Assembly (NCBI GenBank): GCA_000989305.1
Contig: LBTB01000005.1
Span: 4,409 to 68,408, forward strand
DNA from: Candidatus Shapirobacteria bacterium GW2011_GWF2_37_20
GTDB taxonomy: Bacteria; Patescibacteriota; Microgenomatia; UBA12405
Length of the DNA: 64,000 bases
Reading direction: 5' to 3'
In this document: positions 28,420 to 48,517 of the stretch, piece after piece
Position numbering within the stretch: position 1 is the first letter of the stretch
How the letters are laid out: each line of letters starts with the position of its first letter
Program-made: the position numbers and the translations under genes
The notes under the pieces: model-generated
Seen by the model: the letters and a program-made list of their open reading frames with translations, nothing else
Database searches by the model: none
Told to the model about the DNA's origin: nothing

Positions 28420-30063
28420 TTAGGAGTTTTCTTCCAGTTCGATGATGCGTTGGAGAATTGCCAGGCTACCAAGATAGACGGGTTCGACACCGGCGAGATT
28501 GAGAGAACCGGCACCGAGGTTTTTAGCCTTAGAATAAGGGGTGTCGGAGGTGTAGTTGATGATACCAATATCAAAGGGGGTGGAATTGAGATCAACCATG
28601 GTGCCACGGGGAGTTTGTTGATCATAGGTGGCCTCGGTAATAGCGGAAAGATAGGGGCCATTTTCCATTTCGATAACGGTGAGATCGTTTTGGGAATATT
28701 TTTTTAGGAGGGGTTCATTTTCTAAAAAGGTACCAAAGACGGTAACAGATTTTTGGTTGGTGAGAATGGAACCCTGGGAGTTGTTAAAAGGGAAGGAGGT
28801 GTTGAAACAATTTTTGAAAAAGTAGGAATTTTGCGAATGTTCGTCAAAAACCAGACGAGGAATCTGGAGATCGCCAACTTCAGAATTAAGAACAGCGGCT
28901 TTACCTAAAATATAGACACCTTTGACGGCGGCAACATTTTCCAAAACCTTATTTAGGACATGATAAGCGGCAAAACCGAGAGGATAGTCGATGTTAAAAA
29001 TCAGAGCATCACTTTTGGCAATTTTACTGGGTTTGCTAATTTTCAGACGAGGGTCAAGATATTTTGATTTAGAAAAAGACTTGACGGGGAAAATTTGAGT
29101 GTTGACATCGAGATAGTGGGCGGAAGGAGTGGTTTGAATATTAAGATTGTCTTGAATTTTTTGCCAATCCTTTTGGTATTTTTTATCGCTGACAAAAAAT
29201 TTGGAGAGATAATAGAGAAGATCTTGGGGAGGGATATAAGGACAGAGGTCATTGCAATTTTCCGGGGCAATTTTAAGAAGTTTTTTTTCTGATTTGAGAG
29301 CAAAACCGGTAATGATGTTTAGAAGTGAATGAGAATTACTACTGACAAAATAGACGCGTTGACGGGAAAGATGAAAAGATTTTGAGACACTGAAGGAAAT
29401 ATTTTTCCACCAGTGCTGGGTGGTTTTGGTGTAGTCAATCCAGGAACCAGCCAAAAGACGGAGGCGGATGTTTTGGGGGCGGTGATACATTCTCTTTAAA
29501 CGAAGACGCCAATTTTTACCAAGAGCGATTTTAATTTTTTGCCAATCTTCAGCCGATAAGTTGACAACTTTTAGAAAGTCGGGAGAAGTTAGGGCTTTTT
29601 TAAACTGAGAATATTTGGGGTAGGTGGAAGTGGCGATTTGGTGGAATTTATTCCATTCGAGTTGGTAGGCAATCAGAAGATTAACAATGTCGTCAACATC
29701 GGTGACGGAACTGATGAAGGAGGCGGCAACACCGGTTTTTCGGTTTAAAAAACGGGTACGGCGACGGGCGGTAACGGCAAGTTTTGACCATTTAGTGACG
29801 TCAGGAAAACCGGCGTCAGAAAAAACCTGAGGATTTTGACCCATGACAACAATTTTGGTGATGTCGACAACTTTGGGTAGACGAAGAAGGGAGTAAACAA
29901 TGGCGGAGGGATCGAGACGGGTGGGGTCGCGGGCAAGGGGGTGTAAAATTGTGTCCATTTTTAGGTAAGAATTGGTGAGAGAATGAACGGTAACCTCAAG
30001 ATTGCTTTTGAGGGCAGAGCGATAAGTACGAATGTGGAGGTCAATAGAATCAATGGAGGACAT
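28420..30063 (-). CDS. Hypothetical protein with a C-terminal nucleoside phosphorylase/MTA-nucleosidase-like (PNP_UDP_1-like) domain
   Basis: The C-terminal about 230 aa contains GKAAVLNSEVGDLQIP and TVIEMENGPYLSAI, which resemble the MtnN-type motifs G.AG.L...GD and vEMEs.A.A. The N-terminal about 300 aa is unrecognised. Confidence 0.35.
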   Translation of the reverse strand: MSSIDSIDLHIRTYRSALKSNLEVTVHSLTNSYLKMDTILHPLARDPTRLDPSAIVYSLLRLPKVVDITKIVVMGQNPQVFSDAGFPDVTKWSKLAVTARRRTRFLNRKTGVAASFISSVTDVDDIVNLLIAYQLEWNKFHQIATSTYPKYSQFKKALTSPDFLKVVNLSAEDWQKIKIALGKNWRLRLKRMYHRPQNIRLRLLAGSWIDYTKTTQHWWKNISFSVSKSFHLSRQRVYFVSSNSHSLLNIITGFALKSEKKLLKIAPENCNDLCPYIPPQDLLYYLSKFFVSDKKYQKDWQKIQDNLNIQTTPSAHYLDVNTQIFPVKSFSKSKYLDPRLKISKPSKIAKSDALIFNIDYPLGFAAYHVLNKVLENVAAVKGVYILGKAAVLNSEVGDLQIPRLVFDEHSQNSYFFKNCFNTSFPFNNSQGSILTNQKSVTVFGTFLENEPLLKKYSQNDLTVIEMENGPYLSAITEATYDQQTPRGTMVDLNSTPFDIGIINYTSDTPYSKAKNLGAGSLNLAGVEPVYLGSLAILQRIIELEENS

Positions 30064-32881: not shown

Positions 32882-34555
32882 CTAGTCCAAATCACCAACA
32901 TCTGGATTTTTTACTTGGAAATCTTTACCCTTTTGGTCTTGTCGTTTTTTCCTCCAGGAATCAAATGGCATAAAGACTTTCTTATCAACATAATCAGTGG
33001 TTTTATCGCTAATTTCTTCGCGAATTCCACCTGTTACGCTTGATGCAACAGCGCCGCCTAGACTTGTTGCCATGTTCTTACTAAGACCTTCACCAATAGC
33101 CTGGCCCCAAGGAGAGGGCTTAATCATAAAGATAAATTGAGGCACCATTTCAGGAAGCTTGCTGATGAGAGCGAGGCCAGCCAAACCAATGGCGGCACCG
33201 ATAATGGAGGGGGAAATACCGCCAGCACTGAGAAGTGATGGGGTCCAAACTGCGGGTTGAAAAAGACCACCGGTAGAACCGACATTAGAAACAGAAACAG
33301 CATCGATAATCATATTCAGAAGAACTAAAAATATTCCAACTACAGGGAAAACAGCCATGTTGGCGGCAACATCAAGAATCCAGGAGGAAAAACCTATTTT
33401 TGCATTAGGAAAAGCACCCATGCCAATCTCGAGCGGAGCTAGAACAATTTTGAAAATGAGAGTGACGTAACACTTGAGAAGACCAAAATAGAGTTTGATC
33501 AACCAAATGGCGACGATAATACAAAGAACAATGGGAACTAAGAGACCACCAATAAGACCACCGGCGGCACCGCCAACCACACGACCAACCATGTCACCAA
33601 CAAAATTAGCTCCGGTTCCAAATATGGCACCAACACCACCGAGAAGGAAACCGAGAACAATGCTACCCAAAAGACCGCCAAGCATAACAAGTGAAAGCCA
33701 ACCGGGGACAGCCCGATAGGTTAACATTTGCATGTCGCGGAGAGTAGGGTTGCTGAGGCTTGAAAATTTAAAGTTTTCAGGGGTAAAAATAGCACCAATT
33801 CCATTAAGAATGTCGCTGACAATCGGAAAGCCAGAACCCCACCAACCGGGGAAGAGACTATCAGTAAGAGGTACACCTTTGACGGAAAAGAGAAGGGCGA
33901 CGACGAGAGCCTGGATGAAATTGAACAAATCGATAACCAGACCAGCGATAGCGTAGGAAAAGGTGACTAAAATGAGAGTGGTTATCAATTGGGGGATGGC
34001 ACTTTGAACGGTGACGACGGCCTGGGGACTAATTTTGACCCGAAGCATAATCATAATGCCAATGGCTATAAAAATTATTGAGGTAAGGACATAGACGGCA
34101 TTTCTGAAACCGCGCCAAAGAGGCAATAAAAACTGAAGGCCGTTAAAACCAACACCTTGGGCATAGGCGGGTTTACCTAAAAAAGAATCCCTAACTTGGG
34201 CAATATATTCAACGCCGGAAGCGGGAGGAGTATTGAGAGCGGCGACCATATTGTTCATAGTGCCAAAGGCCCCACCGGGAATATAGTTTTGAATAACGTT
34301 GGTAGTAGGAGTACTGGATTCAAAAATTTCAGCAGGAATTTCACCAACCATACCAGTAAAAAGAGACATCATGTTACTACTCATGGCTTCATTAGTCCAA
34401 GATTCCAGGCCGCTACCATTTTTAATAGCGGACTGTTTTTGAAGAAAGAGATTGGGTTGGGATTGGGCAAAGGCAGGAGAGACAAAGAAAGACCCGCTTA
34501 GACCAAAGGTTACAGCAAGGAAAAGTAAAAAACCAAATAAAGATCGGCTGGACAT
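32882..34555 (-). CDS. Signal-peptide-bearing polytopic (about 8 TM) Gly-rich membrane protein; possible VirB6/TrbL-like channel component
   Basis: Signal peptide ...FFVSPAFAQS, an about 120-aa extracytoplasmic region, then about 8 hydrophobic helices. It lies just downstream of the pilin-like array on the same strand. Confidence 0.35.
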   Translation of the reverse strand: MSSRSLFGFLLFLAVTFGLSGSFFVSPAFAQSQPNLFLQKQSAIKNGSGLESWTNEAMSSNMMSLFTGMVGEIPAEIFESSTPTTNVIQNYIPGGAFGTMNNMVAALNTPPASGVEYIAQVRDSFLGKPAYAQGVGFNGLQFLLPLWRGFRNAVYVLTSIIFIAIGIMIMLRVKISPQAVVTVQSAIPQLITTLILVTFSYAIAGLVIDLFNFIQALVVALLFSVKGVPLTDSLFPGWWGSGFPIVSDILNGIGAIFTPENFKFSSLSNPTLRDMQMLTYRAVPGWLSLVMLGGLLGSIVLGFLLGGVGAIFGTGANFVGDMVGRVVGGAAGGLIGGLLVPIVLCIIVAIWLIKLYFGLLKCYVTLIFKIVLAPLEIGMGAFPNAKIGFSSWILDVAANMAVFPVVGIFLVLLNMIIDAVSVSNVGSTGGLFQPAVWTPSLLSAGGISPSIIGAAIGLAGLALISKLPEMVPQFIFMIKPSPWGQAIGEGLSKNMATSLGGAVASSVTGGIREEISDKTTDYVDKKVFMPFDSWRKKRQDQKGKDFQVKNPDVGDLD

Positions 34556-34593
34556 TGAGTTATTTTAGCAAAAAAACAGGTAATGTTTTCATA

Positions 34594-36015
34594 TTAAAAC
34601 CAGGATGCGGGACGAAGTAATGATTGCATTTCCTTATAGAGGGCATCAGCTCGGTAGCCAGGGTCGGGGATAGGATTATTTTGATTAGTGGTAGTGGTGC
34701 TGGAAAAAGACTTATCCAAGAGATTGTTGTTTTTGAGAGTGGAGGCAGGAATCATGTTGGAATAAGCCATTTCGGCAACCTTGGTATTATCAACTACTTT
34801 GGCGTCGTAGGTACTGGAAACTTTGATATCAACACTTTTTTCAAGAGAATTACCGGCGGTGACACGTTGAAAAAAAGCGGCAATAAGAGCGATGCTGGAA
34901 TCAACGGGTTGGTCGCGAGCAATTTCGGAATTTTTTTCAACATTGTCACAAAGAGAGGGGTTGGATAGAGTTTTTTGGCCAGCATAATTGATAAAGCCAA
35001 GATTTTGGTTGGCATTGGCGGCGGCGGCGGCAGGGAGAGTCCGGTCGAAGGAGGTTGGGACGGGACAGGCAGGATTGCCGTTGGCGTCGGTACAATTATA
35101 GTTAACAACAGTGACCTTGCTATTGACGTTGCCCTTGGGAATGTAGTTTAACTGAGAGTACATTAATTCATAGAGATCTTTAGTCAGAGGTGAAAATGAT
35201 TTTCCCTTAGAACGAGTGGAATAACAGCCGTAGGGGCCGGAACAGTTACCACCATAATGGCTTTGGACGTTGCTTAAGACATTTGAAGGAAAGGTGACGG
35301 GAGAGGCAGCGGGGGAAGAATAGTAGATGGGTTCGTCTTTGAGACCAAAAAGAAGCTCGCTGATATAAACTGGACGACAAGAATTACCGGTTGATTGATT
35401 GGTGAGTTCCTGGCAGGTGCCACCACAAGACCAGGCGATTTGATAATCCTGAACAACGGTGTCGATGGGGTTGGCTTGGTCGAGAGATTGGGCAATTTCG
35501 AGTAAAAATTGGCTACGATAATAAAGGAGCTGGGAATAAGGGGTGGTTCGAAGGGAGGCACTAGTGCCGTCGGTGTCAAAATTGGTGAAGGCGGCTTTGG
35601 CCCTGTCGGGGGTGCACTTGATACCACCACGAGCAAAGAATGTTTGATAATTGCGATAAAAATCGTTACTGAGATTTTCGACATCCATTTCGCCAGTGAT
35701 AGGACCCTGCGCCGTGTAATCAACATATTCAAAAATTGGATTACCGTTGGCGTCAGTGGTGCCAGTATCCTGTTGAACGGGTTCCCAGGACTTGGAAATT
35801 GTGGCAACACCTTCACAGGTGATGATATTGTCTTCTAAGGTGTTGGAGTAGGTGTCGTTGCTGGGAACTTCCGGAGCCAAAGCAGGTCCAGGAACAGAAC
35901 GGGTGCTGGGTTGCATTTGAATAGGGGGGAAAAGGAAGTCAATGAGATTAAAGGCTTTTGCCGGAGCCGTTGAAAAAAAGAAAAAAATAGCGATGAGGGC
36001 AGAGACTTTTTTCAA
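34594..36015 (-). CDS. Secreted hypothetical protein (473 aa, Cys-containing)
   Basis: N-terminal signal peptide MKKVSALIAIFFFFSTAPAKA with no further TM helix. Confidence 0.4.
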   Translation of the reverse strand: MKKVSALIAIFFFFSTAPAKAFNLIDFLFPPIQMQPSTRSVPGPALAPEVPSNDTYSNTLEDNIITCEGVATISKSWEPVQQDTGTTDANGNPIFEYVDYTAQGPITGEMDVENLSNDFYRNYQTFFARGGIKCTPDRAKAAFTNFDTDGTSASLRTTPYSQLLYYRSQFLLEIAQSLDQANPIDTVVQDYQIAWSCGGTCQELTNQSTGNSCRPVYISELLFGLKDEPIYYSSPAASPVTFPSNVLSNVQSHYGGNCSGPYGCYSTRSKGKSFSPLTKDLYELMYSQLNYIPKGNVNSKVTVVNYNCTDANGNPACPVPTSFDRTLPAAAAANANQNLGFINYAGQKTLSNPSLCDNVEKNSEIARDQPVDSSIALIAAFFQRVTAGNSLEKSVDIKVSSTYDAKVVDNTKVAEMAYSNMIPASTLKNNNLLDKSFSSTTTTNQNNPIPDPGYRADALYKEMQSLLRPASWF

Positions 36016-36018
36016 GAT

Positions 36019-36450
36019 TTAGCCGGGAATGATAAATTGAGTAATGTTGACGCCGGTGAATTGTTGAATAAAGCTTAAGATTAACCAGGAAGCGATTATG
36101 CCGATAAGTCCAATAAAAGCCATGGTTAGGGTTGAAGAGGCGGTGGCAACAGCCTTTTGTTCACCGCTACTGAGAAGGTATTTAAAGCCGCCACTAATAA
36201 ACATAAAGAGAAAAGCTAAACCGGCAAGTAAAACAATTACCTGGAGAACATTGAAGAAGAGACATTCAAAACCTTGGATGGTGGCAATGTCATTGTAGGT
36301 AACATTACCCAGGCCATTGGGGTTAACAGTAACGCTTTTGACACAGCGACCGGTGGTAGTCCAAGATTGAGGACTTTGGGCAAAAGCAGGAGAAACAAGA
36401 AACAAGAGATTGGAAACTAGAAAGAAGAAGAAAAAGAACATGGTTTTCAT
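36019..36450 (-). CDS. Small 2-TM pilin-like protein, paralog 1 (T4SS pilin/VirB2-TrbC-like candidate)
   Basis: Signal peptide ...LVSPAFAQS, a Cys pair in the mature N-terminus, then TM1 ending in ISGGFKYLLSSGEQKAVATA and TM2 FIGLIGIIASWLIL. Confidence 0.5.
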   Translation of the reverse strand: MKTMFFFFFFLVSNLLFLVSPAFAQSPQSWTTTGRCVKSVTVNPNGLGNVTYNDIATIQGFECLFFNVLQVIVLLAGLAFLFMFISGGFKYLLSSGEQKAVATASSTLTMAFIGLIGIIASWLILSFIQQFTGVNITQFIIPG

Positions 36451-36524
36451 GGGTTAATTATAGCAAGAAAAACCCGGTCATTATGTCCATTGGGCACGCT
36501 GACCGGGTTGAAGTTTAATAAAAA

Positions 36525-36905
36525 TTATTTATTAAAGGTTGGAATGGTGATCCCGCTAAGAAGACTGATGCCAAAGATGGTTTCGATCAGCTTCATGATG
36601 GCGAAGGTGGCGAAAACGATAGCCAAACCAATTAAGGCATTGGTAATTTGATTGCGGGCAGTCTCGACATTTTTTTGGTCACCACCAGACATAACCCATT
36701 TTAAACCGCCCATGATAAGGATAAAAAAGAAAACTAAGGCGACAACAAGAAGAGCTAGAGAGATGGCTCCAGAGACGATACCGGAAGCGGTAATGCTGGT
36801 AAGAGGCTTAAAATCGCTGGTACCAGGAGTGAGTTCGATGGTGGCGGCATAAGCGGGAACGGCCAAGATAGCGTATTGAAGTTTGTTTTTGATTGAGGAG
36901 ATCAT
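36525..36905 (-). CDS. Small 2-TM pilin-like protein, paralog 2
   Basis: Signal peptide AILAVPAYAAT. Core motif IMGGLKWVMSGGDQKNVETARNQITNALIGLAIVF. Confidence 0.5.
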   Translation of the reverse strand: MISSIKNKLQYAILAVPAYAATIELTPGTSDFKPLTSITASGIVSGAISLALLVVALVFFFILIMGGLKWVMSGGDQKNVETARNQITNALIGLAIVFATFAIMKLIETIFGISLLSGITIPTFNK

Positions 36906-36958
36906 ATTTTTAAAATTAATAAATTTATTAATGAATTTTAACAGTAAGATAAGTTTTT

Positions 36959-37282
36959 TTAAAGGGTGGGCCAGGTTATTTGTAAGTTTTCGAGTCCGGT
37001 AACACCAAGCACAGTGCCAACAAGCTTGAGAACAGCGAAGACGCCGAAAATGACAACTATACCGATAAGGGCAAAGGTAATTTGGTCTTTGGCAACAGTT
37101 AATTTTTTAGGATCACCTTCGGTGCTAATTAAATGATAGCCGGCCATAATGAAATGCCAAATGAAGTAGACAGAGGCAACGAGAAAAAAGATGGAAAAAA
37201 CAGTTTGAATGACGTTGTTGGTGTAGGTGGTGGGGTCTTCAACTTGCTGAAGACCATTTTTTAAGAGGGGATTGAAAATCAT
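36959..37282 (-). CDS. Small 2-TM pilin-like protein, paralog 3 (start trimmed to the internal ATG)
   Basis: The ORF-track start at 37408 would overlap the upstream paralog by 119 nt. The ATG at 37282 (MIFNPLL) removes the overlap. Core motif IMAGYHLISTEGDPKKLTVAKDQITFALIGIVVIF. Confidence 0.45.
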   Translation of the reverse strand: MIFNPLLKNGLQQVEDPTTYTNNVIQTVFSIFFLVASVYFIWHFIMAGYHLISTEGDPKKLTVAKDQITFALIGIVVIFGVFAVLKLVGTVLGVTGLENLQITWPTL

Positions 37283-37289
37283 ATATTTT

Positions 37290-37652
37290 TTATAAACCCA
37301 TATTGGTAAACATGGTTTGAAGATCGAGGGGGTTGTTGAGGCCAAGGAGTTTGGAAATAAGAGTACCAAGACCAATGGCGATAACAACGATAAATAATCC
37401 CAAAACACCGTTGGTGAGTTTACTACGGTTCATTTCTAATTTTTTCTCGTCACCTTGGGTGGACATAAAGCCGTAACCGGCCAATATAATTTGGACGATA
37501 AAAAAGATAACAGCGATGATGGTGAGAACACCAATGAGTTGGCTGATCAGTTTTTCGAGCATGGTAGTGGCTTGGACACCATCGGTGGGGGAAAGTCCAG
37601 GACCCTTGAGGGTATATTGAACAGCTAGAAGTTTATTGGTTAGTGGGGCCAT
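37290..37652 (-). CDS. Small 2-TM pilin-like protein, paralog 4
   Basis: Core motif ILAGYGFMSTQGDEKKLEMNRSKLTNGVLGLFIVVIAI. Confidence 0.5.
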   Translation of the reverse strand: MAPLTNKLLAVQYTLKGPGLSPTDGVQATTMLEKLISQLIGVLTIIAVIFFIVQIILAGYGFMSTQGDEKKLEMNRSKLTNGVLGLFIVVIAIGLGTLISKLLGLNNPLDLQTMFTNMGL

Positions 37653-37962
37653 AGATTTGTGGACTTAAAATGTTAATTCCGGTGAGTCGTCCGACCAAAC
37701 CGGCAATGATAAAAGCAGCGGAAATAATGATAAGTCCAACCAGACTTTGCCAAATTTTCATCCAGGCGAGTTCGGTTTTTTTGGTGTCGCCATTAGCATT
37801 GATGTAATCAAAACCGGCAAAAATTAGTTGAGCAATCATGAAAATGCCACCGGCAATAGCGGCAAATTTTAAAACATTGCCTAAGAAATCAAAAAGACCT
37901 TGACCGGGAGTGGTGCTGGTGTATTTGGTGGGATTTTGGATAGTACCAAAGAGTCCAATCAT
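37633..37962 (-). CDS. Small 2-TM pilin-like protein, paralog 5
   Basis: Core motif IFAGFDYINANGDTKKTELAWMKIWQSLVGLIIISAAF. Confidence 0.5.
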   Translation of the reverse strand: MIGLFGTIQNPTKYTSTTPGQGLFDFLGNVLKFAAIAGGIFMIAQLIFAGFDYINANGDTKKTELAWMKIWQSLVGLIIISAAFIIAGLVGRLTGINILSPQIYGPTNQ

Positions 37963-37965
37963 AGT

Positions 37966-38289
37966 TTATAGAATAGATAATCCAGTAATAACTTCAACAA
38001 TTTGGATTATAAAGTAACTGAGAAAAATTACCAAGAAGCCAATAAGAGCGTCGGTAATCAAGGTTTTTCCGGTAGCGGCTTTTTTTTGATCACCGGAACC
38101 GGCACTGGCAATCATCATAAAACCACCGGCGATTATAAGGACTATAAGAATAATTCCGGCTATGGTTAGGCCATTTTTGACAATTAAAGTAATGAGAGAG
38201 GCGGGGTCGGGATAAGTTTGAGAAATGCTTTTACCGCCACCCAAGGGGGTGTCACCAAGATTGACGGCAGCTAAGACAAGGTTGGTCAT
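37966..38289 (-). CDS. Small 2-TM pilin-like protein, paralog 6
   Basis: Core motif IAGGFMMIASAGSGDQKKAATGKTLITDALIGFLVIFL. Confidence 0.5.
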   Translation of the reverse strand: MTNLVLAAVNLGDTPLGGGKSISQTYPDPASLITLIVKNGLTIAGIILIVLIIAGGFMMIASAGSGDQKKAATGKTLITDALIGFLVIFLSYFIIQIVEVITGLSIL

Positions 38290-38394
38290 AAATATATAGT
38301 TGGATTATACAATAAATAAGGATAATAATGGTGTTATAATACGCCACAAAATTAATTGATAGAATAAATTTATAAATTAATATTTGCCAAAAAT

Positions 38395-39252
38395 ATGAGA
38401 AAAACTGCCCTAATAGTATTTGCGTGTATCTACCTTAGTTTGGGGATAATTAGAATTGAAGCAAAAGCAGTTAGTCCAACTGTAATACCAACAGCGATAC
38501 CAACAGTGGAGATAATGCCAACGGTGGCGGCGAGAGAGAACATTACTGAGGTATCAAACAAGACGGCGATAAAGACGACTGAGGTGAAATGGAAAGGATG
38601 GAATAGTATAAGTTTCTTGATTTCAGAAGCGATAAAGAGAGGGGTGCCGGAAAATACAATAGTGTTACTGTTACTTTTACCTTTGGTGGCAACTTTAGCC
38701 TCGTTTTTGCACTATGTCGGAGGATTATCCGGATATGGGGTTTTTACACCAACGATGATGGCGGTGGCTTTCTTGGCAACCGGAGTGACGGGCGGATTGG
38801 TTTTATTTGCGGTAATATTGGCGATTACATCCCTGAGTAATATTTTTCTTAAAAAAATGAAGCTGCATTTTTGGCCAGCAAGATCGATTTCTTTGCTGTT
38901 TGTGAGTCTGGGAACTTTTGGGGTAATGATAGTGTCGGCACTACTGAACATCTCTGAAGTGAGTAAAATTTCCATTTTCCCGATTTTGTTTATGATTTTG
39001 CTAACGGAAGAGTTTGTGAGAACCCAATTAATAAAAAGCAAAAAGGAGGCAGTGAGATTAACAATTGGTACCCTAATATTGGCGGGGGTGGGAGCAATTT
39101 CAATGGAAATAAAAGGGTTGCAGGAATTAGTTTTAAAATATCCGGAGATGTTGGTTTTGATGGTAATTGTGATAAATATAGTGGTCGGAAGCTACGGGGG
39201 GATTCGGTTGACAGAGATAAAGAGGTTTAAAAATGCAATCAGAAAAAAATAA
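38395..39252 (+). CDS. 7-TM membrane protein of the 7TM_transglut type (no transglutaminase domain), partner of the ATP-grasp ligases
   Basis: Signal peptide, an about 70-aa Pro/Thr-rich extracytoplasmic segment, then seven hydrophobic helices. It lies immediately upstream of RimK-type ATP-grasp genes. Confidence 0.55.
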   Translation: MRKTALIVFACIYLSLGIIRIEAKAVSPTVIPTAIPTVEIMPTVAARENITEVSNKTAIKTTEVKWKGWNSISFLISEAIKRGVPENTIVLLLLLPLVATLASFLHYVGGLSGYGVFTPTMMAVAFLATGVTGGLVLFAVILAITSLSNIFLKKMKLHFWPARSISLLFVSLGTFGVMIVSALLNISEVSKISIFPILFMILLTEEFVRTQLIKSKKEAVRLTIGTLILAGVGAISMEIKGLQELVLKYPEMLVLMVIVINIVVGSYGGIRLTEIKRFKNAIRKK

Positions 39253-39277
39253 ATTAATAATGAATAATTAAAAATAT

Positions 39278-40666
39278 ATGTTGGGCATAGATTTAAAACA
39301 GTACCGGCAGTTTTTGACAAAAAACGAAAGAAACAAGGTGTATCTACGCAAAAACAGTTCGCAAGGACGGTCAATTGCTGATAACAAATATAAAACCAAA
39401 ATAAGACTGGCAAGGGCGGGAGTAAGTGTACCAGAATTGATGGCCAGATTTAGAAAAGGAGAAGATCTAAGGAGTTTTGAATGGGGGAAATTGGAGGCGA
39501 ACTTTGTGATTAAGCCGGTATTGGGCTATGGAGGAGAGGGAATACTTATTATAAGAAGGAAACTAGATTCTAGAGACGAGAGAGGGGAAGAAAGATATCT
39601 GATGATGAGCGGGAAGATAATTGGCCTGGAAGAAATTAAACTACATTGTCAGGAAATTTTAGCAGGTAAATATAGTATGCACGGAACGGCTGACAACGTG
39701 ATTATTGAAGAAAGAATTAAAATTCACCCGATGTTTTTTTCACTAACCAAGGTGGGTACTCCGGATATCAGAGTAATTGTGTTTAATTGGGTGCCAGTGA
39801 TGGCCATGTTGAGAATTCCAACCGAAAAAAGCGGGGGAAAGGCGAATTTACAGCAAGGAGCTTATGGTTTGGGAATTGATTTGGCAACGGGAATTACTAC
39901 CTTTGGGATTGAAGGGAAGGGTGAAGAGGTGCGAAAAATTTTTGATTATCGAAAAAAAAGAATGATTAAGGTAAATGGGATTAAGATTCCTTTTTGGAAA
40001 GAAATTTTAGAAACAGCAGTAAAATGTCAGAGGGCAATCCCGGGATTGGGATTTATGGGGGTTGATATAGTGCTGGATAAAGAAGACGGACCAAAGGTGT
40101 TGGAAGTTAATGCCAGACCAGGCTTGTCAATTCAGCTGTGCAACAAGGCGGGGATGAAGAGAAGGATTGAAAAAATCGATGATATAAACGTGAGAAGTGA
40201 TGAGCACGCCATCTCTTTGGCGAAGTATTTGTTTGGAGAGAAGTTTTCAGATAAGGTCGCTGAGAAGGAACAGGAGAAAAAGATTCAGCCTCTCGAGATT
40301 ATTAAAATGAAAATTCCTCGTGGTTTTAAACCTGATTTACAAAAAAGTCCAATTTTAAAACAAGGGAAACACCGGGTGGTGGAGGTAAGGGCGAAAGTTG
40401 ATACCGGAGCGTTTAGAAGCTCGATTGACAGAAATTTGGCGGATAAATTGGGATTGATGTCGGTGGAAAAGATTTTATATTTTCGGCATTACAAATCAAG
40501 CCTGGGAAAACACAAGGACAGACCGGTAATCGGAGTGACTTTTTGGTTGCAAGGAAAAAAGGTAGTAACGGCAGTTAACGTAGCCGATAGAAGTAAGCTT
40601 CGAACCAAGTTTTTGCTGGGAAGAAAAGATTTGGAAGGATTTTTAATTTCGGCCAAAAAAATATGA
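39278..40666 (+). CDS. ATP-grasp ligase (alpha-L-glutamate-ligase-related, ATPgrasp_ST-like) fused to a C-terminal retropepsin-like aspartic protease domain
   Basis: ATP-grasp motifs IKPVLGYGGEGI and GVDIVLDKEDGPKVLEVNARPGLS. The C-terminal about 130 aa carries KVDTGAFRSS (the D-T-G-A aspartic protease hallmark, as in Pfam Zn_protease/TIGR02281-type). Confidence 0.7.
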   Translation: MLGIDLKQYRQFLTKNERNKVYLRKNSSQGRSIADNKYKTKIRLARAGVSVPELMARFRKGEDLRSFEWGKLEANFVIKPVLGYGGEGILIIRRKLDSRDERGEERYLMMSGKIIGLEEIKLHCQEILAGKYSMHGTADNVIIEERIKIHPMFFSLTKVGTPDIRVIVFNWVPVMAMLRIPTEKSGGKANLQQGAYGLGIDLATGITTFGIEGKGEEVRKIFDYRKKRMIKVNGIKIPFWKEILETAVKCQRAIPGLGFMGVDIVLDKEDGPKVLEVNARPGLSIQLCNKAGMKRRIEKIDDINVRSDEHAISLAKYLFGEKFSDKVAEKEQEKKIQPLEIIKMKIPRGFKPDLQKSPILKQGKHRVVEVRAKVDTGAFRSSIDRNLADKLGLMSVEKILYFRHYKSSLGKHKDRPVIGVTFWLQGKKVVTAVNVADRSKLRTKFLLGRKDLEGFLISAKKI

Positions 40667-40700
40667 AGAAGTTAATAAATATTATTTTTTTTAATTAAAA

Positions 40701-41681
40701 ATGACTAAAATAGCATTGTTTTTTGGGGGGAAAATCAGTAAACATTTGGTGTTGGTGAGAAATGCGGCGAGGAAAGAGGGGGCGGAACTGGACTTGGTGT
40801 CATATAACAATGTTTGTTTTGAGACGGAAACAGGGAAGATAAGTTTACGGGGAAAAGACGTAAATGATTACGATGTGCTATTTTTTAGGACGACGGGGAA
40901 ACACTGGGAGGAAGTTGACCTGATTATTAATAGTATAAAAAAAGAGGACATGGTGGTAATTGATCCTTTGGTTCGAGACGGAAAACCAAGCTATGCCTGC
41001 AAAGCGTGGCAGATGTTGAAATTAAAAGAAGCAGGGATTGATGTGCCCAGAAGTGTGTATGGATCTTTGTGGTATTTATATGAAGTTATGGCCAGAAATG
41101 ATAATACCCACCAACGAATTTTTTCTTCCGGTGAAGCTGCCAGACAGGCACAAAGTCAGGAAAAGATACTGGAAGGAGATTATGAATTTAATTTTCCGGT
41201 GATAATTAAGGGGAGCGGCGGAGATAGGGGAACAAGAGTGTTTAAGGCTAACAATTTGAAAGAATTAGAAAAATTGGTCAGAGACTTGAGAAAAACGGAA
41301 ACTGAGGGAGGGAAACGATATTTATTACAGGAATACATCGAAAATGATGGAGACTTTAGGGTTTTGATACTGGGAGAAAAAGTGTTGGGGGTAATGAAAA
41401 GAGCCAGGGCGAATAAAAATGAGTTTAGGAATAATTATAGTGCCGGGGGAACAGTGGAAGTGGCTGATTTGCCGGAAGAAGTGAAAGAGTTAGCGGTTAG
41501 GGCGGCGAAAACTTGTGGGCTGGCGGTGGCGGGAGTTGATGTGGCATTCAGAGATTTTGATATGAAAAAACCGGTGATTTGGGAGGTGAATAAGGGCCCA
41601 CAATTTAAGGGTTTTATGAAAGCCACAGGAGTTGATGTGCCGACAGAAATTGTTAAATATTTGGTTTCACTTAAAAAATAA
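40701..41681 (+). CDS. RimK-like ATP-grasp ligase, paralog 2
   Basis: FPVIIKGSGGDRGTRVF and GVDVAF...KPVIWEVNKGPQF match RimK-family motifs. Confidence 0.75.
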   Translation: MTKIALFFGGKISKHLVLVRNAARKEGAELDLVSYNNVCFETETGKISLRGKDVNDYDVLFFRTTGKHWEEVDLIINSIKKEDMVVIDPLVRDGKPSYACKAWQMLKLKEAGIDVPRSVYGSLWYLYEVMARNDNTHQRIFSSGEAARQAQSQEKILEGDYEFNFPVIIKGSGGDRGTRVFKANNLKELEKLVRDLRKTETEGGKRYLLQEYIENDGDFRVLILGEKVLGVMKRARANKNEFRNNYSAGGTVEVADLPEEVKELAVRAAKTCGLAVAGVDVAFRDFDMKKPVIWEVNKGPQFKGFMKATGVDVPTEIVKYLVSLKK

Positions 41682-41685
41682 AATT

Positions 41686-42594
41686 ATGAAGAGAAAAATT
41701 GTTACTTTTACCATGTCGCTTCGACAAAGCCAATTTGAGGTGGACAGACTTGAAGGGGAAGCCAATAAAATGGGAATTGAAGTGAATAGGGCGCTTTATA
41801 GAGAATTAAGCTTTGATCTGAAAGACGGGGCGGCGAAAGTATTCGTCCGAGGCGAGGAATTGACAGCCGAGAATACTTTAGGATTGTGGTTTAGGGTAGC
41901 GGGAACCAGAAGCGGAAAGTATACCGAAGCGAGAAATCTAGTAATCAGAATCCTAAGAGGAAAAGGAGTGTTTTGTGTTAATGAAAAAGGTTATCTGATG
42001 TGGACGAGAATGGGAAAAATTGCTCAGCATGGGGTGTTTTTGGAGAATAATATTCCGGTGGTGCCGACAATGGTTTTTTATACAAAAGAACAGGTTTTGC
42101 AAAGTAAAATAGGAGAAGAATTCGGGTGGCCGGTGATAGCTAAGCATGAGAGGGGGTATCAAGGGAAGTCTGTCAGAAGATTTGAAGAGAGAAAAGAATT
42201 AGAAAAATTTGTTAGGAAAATTAACGAAAAAAACGTGGGAATGTTTTTGTGGCAAAAGTATTTACCAACTAAGTGGGATATCCGAGCAGTAATTGTTGAC
42301 GGAAAGGCGATTGGGGGAATGAAGAGGTCGGCGGTGGGAGAGGAGTTTAGAAGTAATTTTTCATTGGGAGGAGAGGTGGAAGCGTGGAAATTGAGTGACG
42401 ATGAGATAAAATTGGCGGAGAAAGTGGCAAATGTTTGTGGACTGGATTATGGTGGGGTAGATATTATGAAAGACGAAAAAGGGAATAATTATATTCTGGA
42501 GATAAATCGGCAATGTCAGTTTCAGGGTTTTGAAAAAGCGACAGGAATCAATGTGGCCAAAAGAGTAGTTGAAATGATAGCCAATAAAAAATAG
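41686..42594 (+). CDS. RimK-like ATP-grasp ligase, paralog 3
   Basis: WPVIAKHERGYQGKSV and GGVDIMKDEKGNNYILEINRQCQF. The ORF track starts at 41632 and overlaps the previous gene; the ATG at 41686 (MKRKIVTF) is preferred. Confidence 0.75.
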   Translation: MKRKIVTFTMSLRQSQFEVDRLEGEANKMGIEVNRALYRELSFDLKDGAAKVFVRGEELTAENTLGLWFRVAGTRSGKYTEARNLVIRILRGKGVFCVNEKGYLMWTRMGKIAQHGVFLENNIPVVPTMVFYTKEQVLQSKIGEEFGWPVIAKHERGYQGKSVRRFEERKELEKFVRKINEKNVGMFLWQKYLPTKWDIRAVIVDGKAIGGMKRSAVGEEFRSNFSLGGEVEAWKLSDDEIKLAEKVANVCGLDYGGVDIMKDEKGNNYILEINRQCQFQGFEKATGINVAKRVVEMIANKK

Positions 42595-42615
42595 TTATAA
42601 TTGTTAAAATAGGGT

Positions 42616-43140
42616 ATGAAACAAGTATTTCTAACTTTGGGGTTGTTGTTGGCGGTAATGGTGGGGTTTTACTGGGTGAGCAATAGATTTGAGGTTAAAA
42701 AGGAAGTAAGTGTTCAAATAGCTGATAAAGAAATATATTTTGAAACACCGGAGAAATTAATGGCCATGACAGAAACGGAAATTAAGTTGTTAGCCAGACA
42801 TGAAAATGGAAAGCTCGTGAGTTATTGGATAGATTTCAATTATGATCCGGCAAAAATAAAAATACTGAATATTGAGGTAAATAAGGATGTTTTTGATAAA
42901 AAAGTGGCGGTGGAACTTGATGAAATAATGGGCAAGGCAAAAATAATTGGGGAAAATTCAAAAAAGAGGGAAAACTTAGTGGGGGGAGACGTATTATTGG
43001 CGACTTTAAAAATAAAAGGGTTGAGTAAAGGAGAGACAATGATTTATGCCAGTAGAAAGCCGGAAGTAGGGATTTTGGAGGGGATAAAAGTGATCGAAGG
43101 TAATTTCCAAATGCCTAACTTTAAGGTAAATTTCTTGTGA
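42616..43140 (+). CDS. Membrane-anchored hypothetical protein (174 aa), last gene of the ATP-grasp cluster
   Basis: N-terminal TM helix LTLGLLLAVMVGFYW. The remainder is hydrophilic and lacks an obvious motif. Confidence 0.4.
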   Translation: MKQVFLTLGLLLAVMVGFYWVSNRFEVKKEVSVQIADKEIYFETPEKLMAMTETEIKLLARHENGKLVSYWIDFNYDPAKIKILNIEVNKDVFDKKVAVELDEIMGKAKIIGENSKKRENLVGGDVLLATLKIKGLSKGETMIYASRKPEVGILEGIKVIEGNFQMPNFKVNFL

Positions 43141-43159
43141 TATACTAATTGGAAATTAA

Positions 43160-43233
43160 GGGCAATTAGCTCAGTTGGTTAGAGCACCGTCCTGATAAGA
43201 CGGGGGTCAATGGTTCGAGTCCATTATTGCCCA
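43160..43233 (+). tRNA. tRNA-Ile (anticodon GAT)
   Basis: Cloverleaf: acceptor GGGCAAT/ATTGCCC, D-arm GCTCAGTTGGTTAGAGC, anticodon stem CCGTC/GACGG with loop CTGATAA, T-arm GGGTCAATGGTTCGAGTCCATT. No CCA is encoded. Confidence 0.85.
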
Positions 43234-43422
43234 CAGGTGTTATTTTTGTAGTGTTAGAATTAAATATGGAAGAGAAGAAGTATAGTTTCTTAAAAGTTTT
43301 GGGAATTTTGGGGGCAACGATATTGATTATTTTTGGAAGTGTGGACAATATTTGGCGGACGCTAAAACTGGGCTGGAATAAGGTAGCAAAAAAATAAGGG
43401 GAGCCTGATATAATTTGAGGAT

Positions 43423-44067
43423 ATGTCGCAGCTGAAATATATAATTGATTTGTTTTTGCATATTGATAAGAATTTGGCCGCAGTGATTGTGCAATATGGG
43501 GTCGGGAGCTATGTATTGTTGTTTATGATTATTTTCATGGAAACAGGCTTTGTGGTGACTCCATTTTTACCCGGAGACTCACTGCTTTTTGCGGCCGGAG
43601 CTTTGACGGCTTCAATGGGGGTTTTTGATATCAAACTATTATGGCTATTAATGGTGGCAGCGGCCTTTTTGGGCGATACGGTGAACTATTGGATAGGACA
43701 TTTTATTGGACCTCGGGCCTTTCAATCAAAAAGTAGGTTTTTGAAAAAAGAATATTTAGATAAAGCCCAGGCTTTTTATGATAAACACGGGGGAGTGGCA
43801 ATTGTGTTGGCACGTTTTGTACCGATTGTACGGACCTTTGCCCCTTTTGTGGCCGGAATTGGAAAAATGCATTACACCAGATTTTTGTCGTTTAATGCGG
43901 TCGGAGGATTGCTTTGGGTGAGCATAATGTTGTTGTCGGGATACTTTTTTGGGAATATCTCTTTTATTAAAAATAATTTTCACTATGTAGTAGTGGTAAT
44001 TATTTTGATTTCAGTGGTACCAATCTTTGTGGAATGGTTGAAGAGCAGAAGAAAGAGGGTAAAATAG
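43423..44067 (+). CDS. DedA/SNARE-associated family membrane protein
   Basis: VTPFLPGDSLLFAAGAL is the DedA signature. Confidence 0.75.
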   Translation: MSQLKYIIDLFLHIDKNLAAVIVQYGVGSYVLLFMIIFMETGFVVTPFLPGDSLLFAAGALTASMGVFDIKLLWLLMVAAAFLGDTVNYWIGHFIGPRAFQSKSRFLKKEYLDKAQAFYDKHGGVAIVLARFVPIVRTFAPFVAGIGKMHYTRFLSFNAVGGLLWVSIMLLSGYFFGNISFIKNNFHYVVVVIILISVVPIFVEWLKSRRKRVK

Positions 44068-44070
44068 TTT

Positions 44071-44499
44071 ATGGACAATGAAGGAGAAATAAAATTAGAA
44101 AAAATCAGACAGACAGTTAATTTGGAAAAGATTACGACTGAAAATTTTGTGAATAAGTGGAAGGAAATTTTTGGAGAAGAGACAACTGTTAGAAGAGAAA
44201 GGTTTGTTAATCAAAGCGGTAAAGAAATCAGTGGAGTGAAGGATACAATTATAGAAAACGTAAAAATAACTCCTGTGGAAAATTTGATTTTTTTGACATA
44301 TCAGGGGGGAGTTGGTCAAGCTGACAAATATATAGCGATTGATAGTAAGGAATATCTTATGGGGGTACAAGATCATGATGGTGGCGAAAAGTCATTTATC
44401 TTGGTTCACAATACAGAGAATAAAAAGACCGGAGAAAATAGGCAGACAACAAGACGCTTTACGCCAGCAAGAGCACAGACCTCGATAAATCAGGTATAA
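44071..44499 (+). CDS. Hypothetical protein (142 aa)
   Basis: Unremarkable ORF. It is a distant paralog-like neighbour of the next ORF; both contain the RER(F/V) motif. Confidence 0.35.
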   Translation: MDNEGEIKLEKIRQTVNLEKITTENFVNKWKEIFGEETTVRRERFVNQSGKEISGVKDTIIENVKITPVENLIFLTYQGGVGQADKYIAIDSKEYLMGVQDHDGGEKSFILVHNTENKKTGENRQTTRRFTPARAQTSINQV

Positions 44500-44925
44500 T
44501 TGGGCATGGAAGTAAAGAATAATATTGAGCCGAAGGAAGAAAATATTTCAATGGAGTGGAAAAAATTACCGGCGAATGAAGCGGTGAAAGTTTTCCGAGA
44601 AGTAATTCCAAATGCATCGATTAATGTGCAGAGGGAAAGGGTGCTATTTGTCGAAGGAAAAAAAGTAAATTATGAAGAGGAAGAGGTGATGTTTTTAATA
44701 AGTTCTCTTGAGGGAAAAAATAATGAGAAGCTAAAATTAGCCTGGAGAACAGATGTTGGGGGAAAGGGTGGTGGGGTATTGGAGTTTGAAGGGAAAATAA
44801 GTATAGCCCAACAGAAAATTGAAGGGGGAAATGATTTGGTGTTGATTGGCGAAAAAGGGGTGACAGATGATGGTAAAAAATGGGAATCTATCCGAAGATT
44901 TCAAGTAAAAGGGAGACAGATTTAA
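44500..44925 (+). CDS. Hypothetical protein (141 aa)
   Basis: Adjacent to and the same size as the previous ORF, and followed by a terminator hairpin. Confidence 0.35.
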   Translation: MGMEVKNNIEPKEENISMEWKKLPANEAVKVFREVIPNASINVQRERVLFVEGKKVNYEEEEVMFLISSLEGKNNEKLKLAWRTDVGGKGGGVLEFEGKISIAQQKIEGGNDLVLIGEKGVTDDGKKWESIRRFQVKGRQI

Positions 44926-45033
44926 CCCATTGATTTGGAGGTAGAGATTAGATACAATATGAACACTTGATGTATAAGCTTCAAATTCGGAATGGAAACA
45001 ATAATACGTGAGAGTATTAGGTCCGAATTTTGG

Positions 45034-45059
45034 GAGCCGACGCAAGTCGGCTTTTTTTA
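45034..45059 (+). terminator. Rho-independent terminator hairpin
   Basis: GCCGAC-GCAA-GTCGGC stem-loop followed by TTTTTTTAT. Confidence 0.55.
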
Positions 45060-45095
45060 TGCTAAACATCGGCTCTTTTTAAATAATAGGCTCTT

Positions 45096-45171
45096 GGGCC
45101 TGTGGCTTAGTTGGTTATAGCGCTTCATTTGCAATGAAGAGGTCGGGAGTTCGAATCTCCCCAGGTCCACC
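45096..45171 (+). tRNA. tRNA-Ala (anticodon TGC)
   Basis: Acceptor GGGCCTG/CAGGTCC with the G3:U70 Ala identity pair, anticodon loop TTTGCAA, T-arm GGGAGTTCGAATCTCCC. Confidence 0.85.
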
Positions 45172-45309
45172 TACGCCATTAGAGAAATGTACCTAGAATT
45201 AGGAAAAGAATCTGAATTGATTGTTTTCCTTGACTATGTACGCACATTAACAATCTATTGAATATTTTATTTTTAATTTTTATCTTGGCAACTAAACTGA
45301 GTTGCTTAA

Positions 45310-48297
<2,988 letters not shown>

Positions 48298-48395
48298 TAC
48301 AGCTCTTAGGCCGCCAGCACTGGTGGTTTAGGAGCTGATTAGGCAGCTCAATTTAGAGGCCAAGAAAAATTAATATAAAATAACTTTACTTTTTG

Positions 48396-48517
48396 AGTCT
48401 CGGTCATCAGAGCGAGGTGGCTCCACCTTTTCCCATTCCGAACAGAGAAGTGAAACGCCTCAGCGCCGACAATAGTCTCCCTGCAAAGGGTCCTGAAGAT
48501 AGGTCGTGGCCGGGACT
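48396..48517 (+). rRNA. rrf: 5S ribosomal RNA
   Basis: CCGAACAGAGAAGTGAAACGCCTCAGCGCCGA matches the 5S consensus (CCGAAC.CAGAAGTGAAAC...AGCGCCGA). The terminal helix is AGTCTCGGTC / GGCCGGGACT. Confidence 0.85.

Follow-up and report, generated by a model that had tools for sequence, protein, structure and literature searches.

A candidate-phyla relative of the Rlo and Rim systems in Shapirobacteria: an RloC-type ATP-grasp ligase fused to a retropepsin domain and encoded with a 7TM protein and RimK-family ligases

A peptide-synthesizing or peptide-tagging system composed of an ATP-grasp ligase, a seven-transmembrane (7TM) transglutaminase protein, and a peptidase was reportedly predicted by Iyer, Abhiman, Burroughs, and Aravind in 2009 (Mol Biosyst 5:1636). 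The rloABC operon of Pseudomonas aeruginosa encodes a retropepsin that is secreted (RloA), a 7TM protein whose transglutaminase domain is inactive (RloB), and an ATP-grasp ligase (RloC) (PMC12239564); it was dissected genetically in 2025, along with crystal structures of RloA (9g58) and RloA2 (9g59) (Lormand et al., mBio 2025, PMC12239564). RloA cleaves runs of at least eight glutamates, and its residues K46, R92, and R114 were shown to bind polyglutamate (poly-Glu); without its three RloA paralogues, the bacterium shows osmotic, biofilm, antibiotic, and shape defects, which deletion of rloB or rloC suppresses (PMC12239564). The product of the Rlo ligase and the biochemical roles of RloB and RloC have not been established in Pseudomonas, and RloB is, according to the same authors, 96% proteobacterial (PMC12239564). 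RimK makes poly-alpha-glutamate, and RimB cleaves poly-Glu tails and stimulates RimK (PMC11957791); a natural RimB-RimK hybrid (RimBK), with the protease at the N-terminus, is active (Little et al., JBC 2025, PMC11957791). MyfA and MyfB are sequential ATP-grasp glutamate ligases of methylofuran biosynthesis (PMC8141765). Here, we analyze a cluster of five plus-strand genes at positions 38395-43140 of a 64-kb stretch of DNA from Candidatus Shapirobacteria bacterium GW2011_GWF2_37_20 (the whole stretch is referred to as the window), which combines counterparts of all three Rlo proteins with two RimK-family ligases.

The window cluster shares with rloABC of P. aeruginosa and P. fluorescens the families PF14397/TIGR02291, PF14402, and PF05618. 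Its five open reading frames (ORFs) are packed with intergenic gaps of 4-34 nucleotides (nt) and encode, in this order, an RloB-like 7TM membrane protein lacking a transglutaminase domain (gene 1, 38395-39252, 285 amino acids [aa]), an RloC-type ATP-grasp ligase with a C-terminal retropepsin domain (gene 2, 39278-40666, 462 aa), two RimK-family ATP-grasp ligases (gene 3, 40701-41681, 326 aa; gene 4, 41686-42594, 302 aa), and a small membrane-anchored protein (gene 5, 42616-43140, 174 aa). The true start of gene 4 is the ATG at 41686, as in database protein P0121, and the TTG at 41632 reported by the ORF lister is an artefact. The same gene order had been given in a preliminary description of this DNA and agrees with the ORFs and the Pfam and NCBIfam matches. 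We interpret the cluster as a candidate-phyla (Patescibacteria) version of the Rlo/Rim class that would synthesize an acidic peptide of the glutamate type at the membrane and trim it, and assign this reading a probability of roughly 55%. The protein families and their association were known or predicted earlier; the candidate-phyla architecture, in which a ligase-protease fusion is combined with a bare 7TM protein and with either RimK-type ligases or a MATCAP metallopeptidase, was not found in the literature searched.

The ligase part of the fusion (aa 12-312, nt 39311-40213) matches PF14397 with 196 bits (cut-off 31.4; E = 7.8e-58) and TIGR02291 over its full length with 258.6 bits (6.5e-77), the latter score being under the hypothetical-equivalog cut-off of 314. 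Residues D263, E276, and N278 of the ATP-grasp domain are invariant, and the complete protein is 100% identical to one from Candidatus Shapirobacteria bacterium GW2011_GWE1_38 (candidate phyla radiation [CPR], Microgenomates). The motifs IKPVLGYGGEGI, VDIVLDKEDGPKVLEVNARPGLS, and KVDTGAFRSS are all located within this 462-aa product. AlphaFold2 (AF2) modeling of the whole fusion yielded a predicted local distance difference test score (pLDDT) of 80-90 for the ATP-grasp domain, with ArgX, RimK, CphA1, and Ddl as the nearest structures; in this model, built on a shallow alignment, the C-terminal domain remained below 50, and it was re-predicted alone from a diverse, trimmed database alignment.

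The model of the C-terminal domain alone (pLDDT 92.4) shows a retropepsin fold: of the 43 Foldseek matches in the PDB at E < 1e-3, every one is retropepsin-like; RloA2 and RloA rank first, and ApRick, Ddi1, 2pma, and retroviral proteases are among the others. At the sequence level, weak PF05618/clan-AA matches were detected at aa 367-460; the window sequence on its own scores 25.9 bits against PF05618, just under the cut-off of 27, and a 56%-identical homologue passes with 42 bits. Likewise, a single-sequence search against PDB sequences was marginal (E = 1e-3), and a profile of the domain retrieved 9g59 (RloA2, 3e-8) and 9g58 (RloA, 1e-5), followed by 2pma, ApRick, and Ddi1. Together, the profiles, AF2, and Foldseek place a PF05618 retropepsin domain of the RloA/RimB type at aa ~336-462 (nt 40283-40663). 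The catalytic motif D375-T-G-A378 (40400-40411, within KVDTGAFR in the translation) is intact and invariant in the 46 close homologues, and in alignments with the RloA structures, K373, R415, and R438 fall on the K-x-D, RPV, and DRS residues; judging by spacing, these three residues would correspond to the poly-Glu-binding K46, R92, and R114 of RloA. The domain lacks cysteines, and the fusion contains no hydrophobic segment, transmembrane (TM) segment, or signal peptide and is therefore predicted to be cytoplasmic. Thus, by sequence and predicted fold, the C-terminal domain is a cytoplasmic retropepsin, like RimB and unlike the secreted, disulfide-bonded RloA. The preliminary description had recognized both the fusion and the retropepsin-like character of its protease. 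It had also invoked a TIGR02291/TIGR02281 pairing, of which the first member stands and the second was not hit, the protease being of the PF05618 type, and had called all three ligases RimK-type, which applies to genes 3 and 4 and not to the first ligase, an RloC-type (ATPgrasp_ST) enzyme rather than RimK proper.

To place the cluster in context, we compared 34 genome and 80 metagenome loci encoding relatives of the fusion at 34-85% identity, of which 110 (contigs counted without dereplication) contain the full fusion gene. In 105 of the 110 loci, the gene immediately preceding the fusion, on the same strand, encodes the 7TM protein, and one to three RimK-like genes follow directly downstream in 82 (position +1 in 70, position +2 in 50). 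Recurrence in about 110 loci puts the arrangement far beyond chance. The fusions in the RimK-containing loci are 37-85% identical to the window protein, and RimK-like paralogues within one locus are everywhere just 18-33% identical to each other; the Lys, Asp, and Glu-x-Asn residues that bind ATP and Mg are kept in all 129 RimK-like neighbors. Clustering of these neighbors by the unweighted pair group method with arithmetic mean, along with their identity to the window paralogues, resolved no two orthologous groups outside Shapirobacteria. DTGA, K373, R415, and R438 are retained in all 72 of the RimK-linked fusions. The expansion to several ligases, noted in the preliminary description, is no peculiarity of this genome and represents the common arrangement in many candidate-phyla lineages.

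A second flavor of the system, found in 22 loci, encodes a MATCAP/DUF1704 metallopeptidase instead of RimK, usually also with a Transglut_core protein and a membrane protein of the holin type upstream. In 20 of these 22 loci, the catalytic Asp of the fusion has been lost (NTGR, NTSR, NTGW, HTGR, or KTGR), along with K373 and R415. Given this reciprocal pattern of either an active retropepsin or MATCAP, peptidase activity seems to be indispensable, and the aspartic protease appears to travel specifically with RimK-type ligases, which favors poly-Glu as its physiological substrate. Natural fusions occur as well: among 77 representatives scanned (the nearest 50%-identity clusters), 35 combine ATP-grasp, retropepsin, and MATCAP in one chain, and further ones add a YdjC domain or a second ATP-grasp domain. 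One protein (P0387, 657 aa) unites retropepsin, 7TM, and ATP-grasp in a single polypeptide, and in locus L087 (4219-6054) two RimK-like ligases are fused into a 611-aa protein. Both the placement of the 7TM gene at position -1 (105 of 110 loci) and these single-chain fusions support the view, anticipated by the preliminary description, that ATP-grasp ligase, 7TM protein, and clan-AA protease would form a functionally linked module; fusion in all combinations points to ligase, 7TM protein, and peptidase being one machine.

Several features of the second flavor deserve mention in their own right. The typical order, as in L032 (8004-13407) and similarly in L036-L054, is 7TM protein, ATP-grasp with dead retropepsin, and MATCAP, often with a ~640-aa Transglut_core protein and a 120-aa Phage_holin_4_2-like membrane protein upstream; the MATCAP module of L032 is followed downstream by a cyanophycin-synthetase-like ligase and a GNAT-like gene (assigned by eye). 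The ATP-grasp-retropepsin-MATCAP chains, ~800 aa long in many database proteins, are reminiscent of the eukaryotic TTL/MATCAP pair. Among the other loci, L001, L003, L004, L007, L008, and several more are labeled "Candidatus Methanoperedens sp." or "uncultured Gammaproteobacteria"; their Shapirobacteria-type pilin-ligase synteny and 76-85% protein identity suggest mis-binned or mislabeled contigs of metagenome-assembled genomes.

The product of gene 1 matches PF14402 (7TM_transglut) with 92 bits (cut-off 25; 5e-26). Against the RloB model NF052267, which has 508 positions, it aligns at 312-506 only, that is, to the C-terminal 7TM part, with 76.7 bits (cut-off 900), and therefore has no transglutaminase module, as had been noted previously. 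A Pfam scan gave no Transglut_core match in this protein, in which ~87 aa precede the first core TM helix. The protein consists of an N-terminal signal or anchor, a Pro/Thr-rich extracellular stretch of ~68 aa, seven TM helices, and a basic cytoplasmic tail (...RFKNAIRKK); a conserved helix with the pattern G-x-R-x-x-E-x-x-R-F lies at the C-terminus of the protein, and a crude hydropathy scan placed the hydrophobic segments at aa 1-19 and 88-271. A distantly related locus (L033, 6511-7980) encodes a 489-aa 7TM partner with an N-terminal extracellular PKD domain where RloB has the transglutaminase, so that the outward-facing module appears to be exchangeable.

Genes 3 and 4 match PF08443 with E values of 3e-30 and 1e-29, respectively, and are 29% identical to each other. 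Against TIGR00768, gene 4 passes with 152.6 bits (cut-off 143.4) and gene 3 is marginally below with 138.3; among PDB sequences, gene 3 is closest to E. coli and Pseudomonas RimK (2e-18) and gene 4 to RimK (1e-15). The K, D (GVD), and E-x-N residues of gene 3 are intact, as are the catalytic residues of gene 4, whose family is narrow (440 matches). Both proteins score far below every equivalog cut-off, namely those for S6 ligase, LysX, MptN, CofF, GshB, and CphA, and are thus not standard RimK, GshB, or cyanophycin synthetase enzymes. Cyanophycin synthetase combines ATP-grasp and Mur-ligase domains in one ~870-aa protein; this identity was rejected, given 26-41 bits against TIGR02068 (cut-off 850) and the absence of a Mur_ligase domain. 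A LysX/ArgX carrier pathway was dismissed as well (TIGR02144, 102-104 bits; cut-off 275.6), and with gaps of 4-34 nt the operon cannot accommodate a LysW carrier gene. The models of graspetide maturases, the ATP-grasp enzymes of ribosomally synthesized and post-translationally modified peptides, yielded 18-33 bits (cut-offs 230-425), ruling these out too, and there is no space for a precursor-peptide ORF inside the operon. GshB was discarded because its equivalog cut-off is far from reached.

Compared with rloABC, the window cluster thus shows both clear kinship and substantial rearrangement. Like RloA, the window retropepsin contains the DTG motif and the conserved basic residues, and the RloA and RloA2 structures are its best structural and sequence matches. 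Unlike RloA, it is fused to the C-terminus of a ligase, lacks a signal peptide and the disulfide cysteines, and is predicted to be cytoplasmic instead of periplasmic; the 7TM protein, in contrast to RloB, lacks the inactive transglutaminase domain. The candidate-phyla variant further differs from rloABC in adding one to three RimK-family ligases and in its monoderm host, and the window proteins score under the NCBIfam cut-offs for RloB, RloA2, and RloA3. With RimK-RimB and RimBK, the cluster shares a cytoplasmic ATP-grasp ligase that is coupled, or can be fused, to a retropepsin-like endopeptidase, as well as RimK-family membership of genes 3 and 4. In RimBK, however, the protease is N-terminal and joined to a true RimK, whereas in the window it is C-terminal and joined to an RloC-type ligase; the opposite domain order and the other ligase type imply an independent fusion. 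The RimK-RimB pair also lacks the 7TM partner and the several ligase paralogues seen here, and neither the S6 ligase nor the RimB model is matched above its cut-off. The association ascribed to Iyer and coworkers differs in three respects, namely the ligase-protease fusion, the 7TM protein without transglutaminase, and the presence of RimK paralogues or of MATCAP with a dead protease. As for MyfA/MyfB, the analogy lies in two divergent ATP-grasp ligases acting in sequence, an initiator and a RimK-like elongator, that build a poly-Glu chain; there, however, a cofactor serves as acceptor, and neither a protease nor a 7TM partner takes part. The statement in the preliminary description that such associations are biochemically uncharacterized is outdated in view of the rloABC genetics, the RloA structures, and poly-Glu cleavage (PMC12239564) and of RimBK (PMC11957791), and still applies to the functions of the ligase and the 7TM protein.

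We propose that the two RimK-family paralogues, probably along with the RloC-type ATP-grasp enzyme, would use ATP to build an alpha-linked, acidic, probably glutamate-rich oligo- or poly-amino-acid in the cytoplasm, either free or attached to an acceptor. The paralogues might work in succession, one initiating and the other elongating as in the MyfA/MyfB pair, or might form a heteromer, a possibility suggested by the L087 fusion. The RloC-type ligase would be docked to the 7TM protein from the cytoplasmic side, and the retropepsin domain, which would have to dimerize to form an active site, could cut the polymer and so limit its length, release it, or recycle it, much as RimB serves RimK. As a dock, export route, or sensor, the 7TM protein may pass the product to the cell surface or couple its synthesis to the state of the envelope. 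In a monoderm cell, which has no periplasm, the protease-ligase fusion may replace the secreted RloA.

The isoelectric point (pI) of 10.6 calculated for the protease domain would fit an acidic substrate, although all proteins of the operon are basic, so that this is weak evidence. Several further observations weigh against the proposal. The amino-acid specificity of the ligases is unreadable from sequence, and no ligase reaches an equivalog cut-off. Among the ORFs of the 64-kb window, we found no candidate substrate with an acidic C-terminus or a run of at least six Asp/Glu residues. The Rlo protease is secreted, whereas that of the window is cytoplasmic, and the logic of the system may differ accordingly from that of Rlo. 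Finally, the locus counts represent contigs, not independent lineages.

Two other readings of the chemistry have to be considered. The cluster could be a classical RimK/RimB system, in which ribosomal protein S6 is polyglutamylated and trimmed to tune translation, and three facts are in line with this: E. coli and Pseudomonas RimK are the best solved relatives of genes 3 and 4, which belong to the RimK family, the protease domain is of the RimB/RloA type and cytoplasmic like RimB, and RimB-RimK hybrids exist (PMC11957791). The scores argue otherwise, given that the S6 ligase model PRK10446 yields 76.9 and 64.2 bits for genes 3 and 4 (cut-off 331) and the RimB model NF052261 yields 15.9 bits (cut-off 200), although the sequence divergence of candidate phyla may depress these values. 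In addition, the protease is attached to an RloC-type, not a RimK-type, ligase in an order opposite to that of RimBK, and neither a 7TM partner, present in 105 of 110 loci, nor two or three highly divergent paralogues (18-33% identity) are needed for S6; a tblastn search with an E. coli S6 query identified no rpsF in the window or in L001-L034. We consider this reading improbable. Somewhat better placed, if still a minority possibility, is a route in which a short, defined non-ribosomal peptide or a tail on a small molecule (osmolyte, cofactor-like tail, envelope precursor) is built step by step, with each ATP-grasp enzyme adding one specific residue, the 7TM protein exporting the product, and the protease processing it or regulating the system itself. 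The strong mutual divergence of the three ligases suggests different specificities, the RimK-family members MptN, CofF, MfnD, and MyfA modify small molecules, the L032 module lies beside a cyanophycin-synthetase-like ligase, MATCAP, and GNAT, and the Rlo phenotype is osmotic, with a role of the system in tolerating hypo-osmotic stress (PMC12239564). A retropepsin endopeptidase, however, needs an extended peptide, at least eight residues in the case of RloA (PMC12239564); the poly-Glu-binding basic residues are kept exactly where RimK-like genes are present; and variation in the number of RimK-like genes between one and three among lineages fits a polymer better than a product of fixed sequence.

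A third possibility concerns the neighbors of the cluster rather than its chemistry. On the minus strand at 36019-38289, six divergently oriented T4SS_pilin paralogues (PF18895, VirB2-like, 107-149 aa) adjoin the operon, and the preliminary description raised the idea that the ligases add amino-acid tails to these pilins or to other surface proteins encoded alongside. The presence of the six pilin genes, a secreted protein, and a polytopic membrane protein divergently upstream is compatible with such a role, as is its conservation in ~30 loci of the Shapirobacteria-like group, with fusions of at least 53% identity. But the array is missing from every RimK-type locus outside that group (~40 loci, fusions at 37-49% identity) and from the distant loci L032-L034, so that the adjacency is a lineage-specific synteny, and Microgenomatia are independently known for abundant VirB2 arrays (PMC12102498). 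Lacking signal peptides, both the ligases and the protease are predicted to be cytoplasmic, and the pilin C-termini are hydrophobic or neutral, not Glu-ended like those of the S6 and LysW substrates. On these grounds, the link to pilins is unsupported, and we regard pilin modification as very improbable.

Beyond the pilin genes, at 32882-36015 on the minus strand, the window encodes the 473-aa secreted protein and the 557-aa polytopic membrane protein (~11 hydrophobic segments), neither of which has a significant Pfam match; almost every Shapirobacteria locus shows both genes in synteny with the pilin array. The 557-aa protein may represent a strongly diverged VirB6-like component; Microgenomatia seem to lack VirB6 (PMC12102498). 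Within the array, a pilin ORF with a GTG start (36959-37408) overlaps the one at 37290-37652 by 119 nt, and its true start is probably further downstream. The 105-nt, AT-rich, divergent intergenic region at 38290-38394, between the array and the operon, presumably contains the promoter; promoter and terminator scans of 37900-43500 gave no matches above shuffled expectation.

At the other end of the operon, gene 5 encodes a small N-terminally anchored protein with a weak cohesin-like domain (PF00963, E = 0.005). Its 28 homologues, some with a precomputed cohesin match, are all of the Shapirobacteria type; a homologue occupies position +3 in 6 loci only, and in L001, L003, and L010 it is shifted by 2.6-3 kb. 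Gene 5, whose membrane anchor had been described previously, is a lineage-specific accessory gene and probably does not belong to the core of the cluster. The window is chromosomal, with 23S and 5S ribosomal RNA (rRNA) genes and tRNA-Ile and tRNA-Ala genes just downstream of the operon, and on the basis of this context we rejected a phage or mobile element origin. The tRNA-Ile gene begins 20 nt after the operon, and the rRNA region that follows (43160-48515) is unusual, consisting of tRNA-Ile, three protein genes, tRNA-Ala, 23S, and 5S. The three protein genes encode a VTT/DedA protein (43423-44067) and two adjacent unannotated proteins (142 and 141 aa, 44071-44925); no 16S gene was found anywhere in the 64-kb window. 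Elsewhere in the window, a 547-aa protein (28420-30063, minus strand) shows a full-length DUF6909 match (E = 1.5e-151).

The variant described here extends Rlo-like systems from Proteobacteria to genome-reduced monoderm symbionts. In Pseudomonas, the Rlo operon influences tolerance to antibiotics, the formation of biofilms, and the shape of the cells (PMC12239564). The retention of four biosynthetic genes in genome-reduced symbionts implies an important role there. The variant also supplies comparative evidence on what Rlo ligases make and offers small, soluble fusion enzymes that could be expressed for biochemistry. More speculatively, and only as a tentative extension, the four conserved genes might constitute a membrane-coupled, ribosome-independent peptide factory widespread in the CPR, whose product, an acidic polymer or a defined peptide, would be sized by the retropepsin and delivered to the surface by the 7TM protein. 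If so, the peptide would serve envelope homeostasis or host attachment in these wall-bearing, periplasm-less epibionts, the protease-ligase fusion would be the monoderm solution to the proteobacterial periplasmic RloA, and the MATCAP flavor with its dead retropepsin would be a bacterial counterpart of the add-and-remove cycle of TTL and MATCAP on tubulin.

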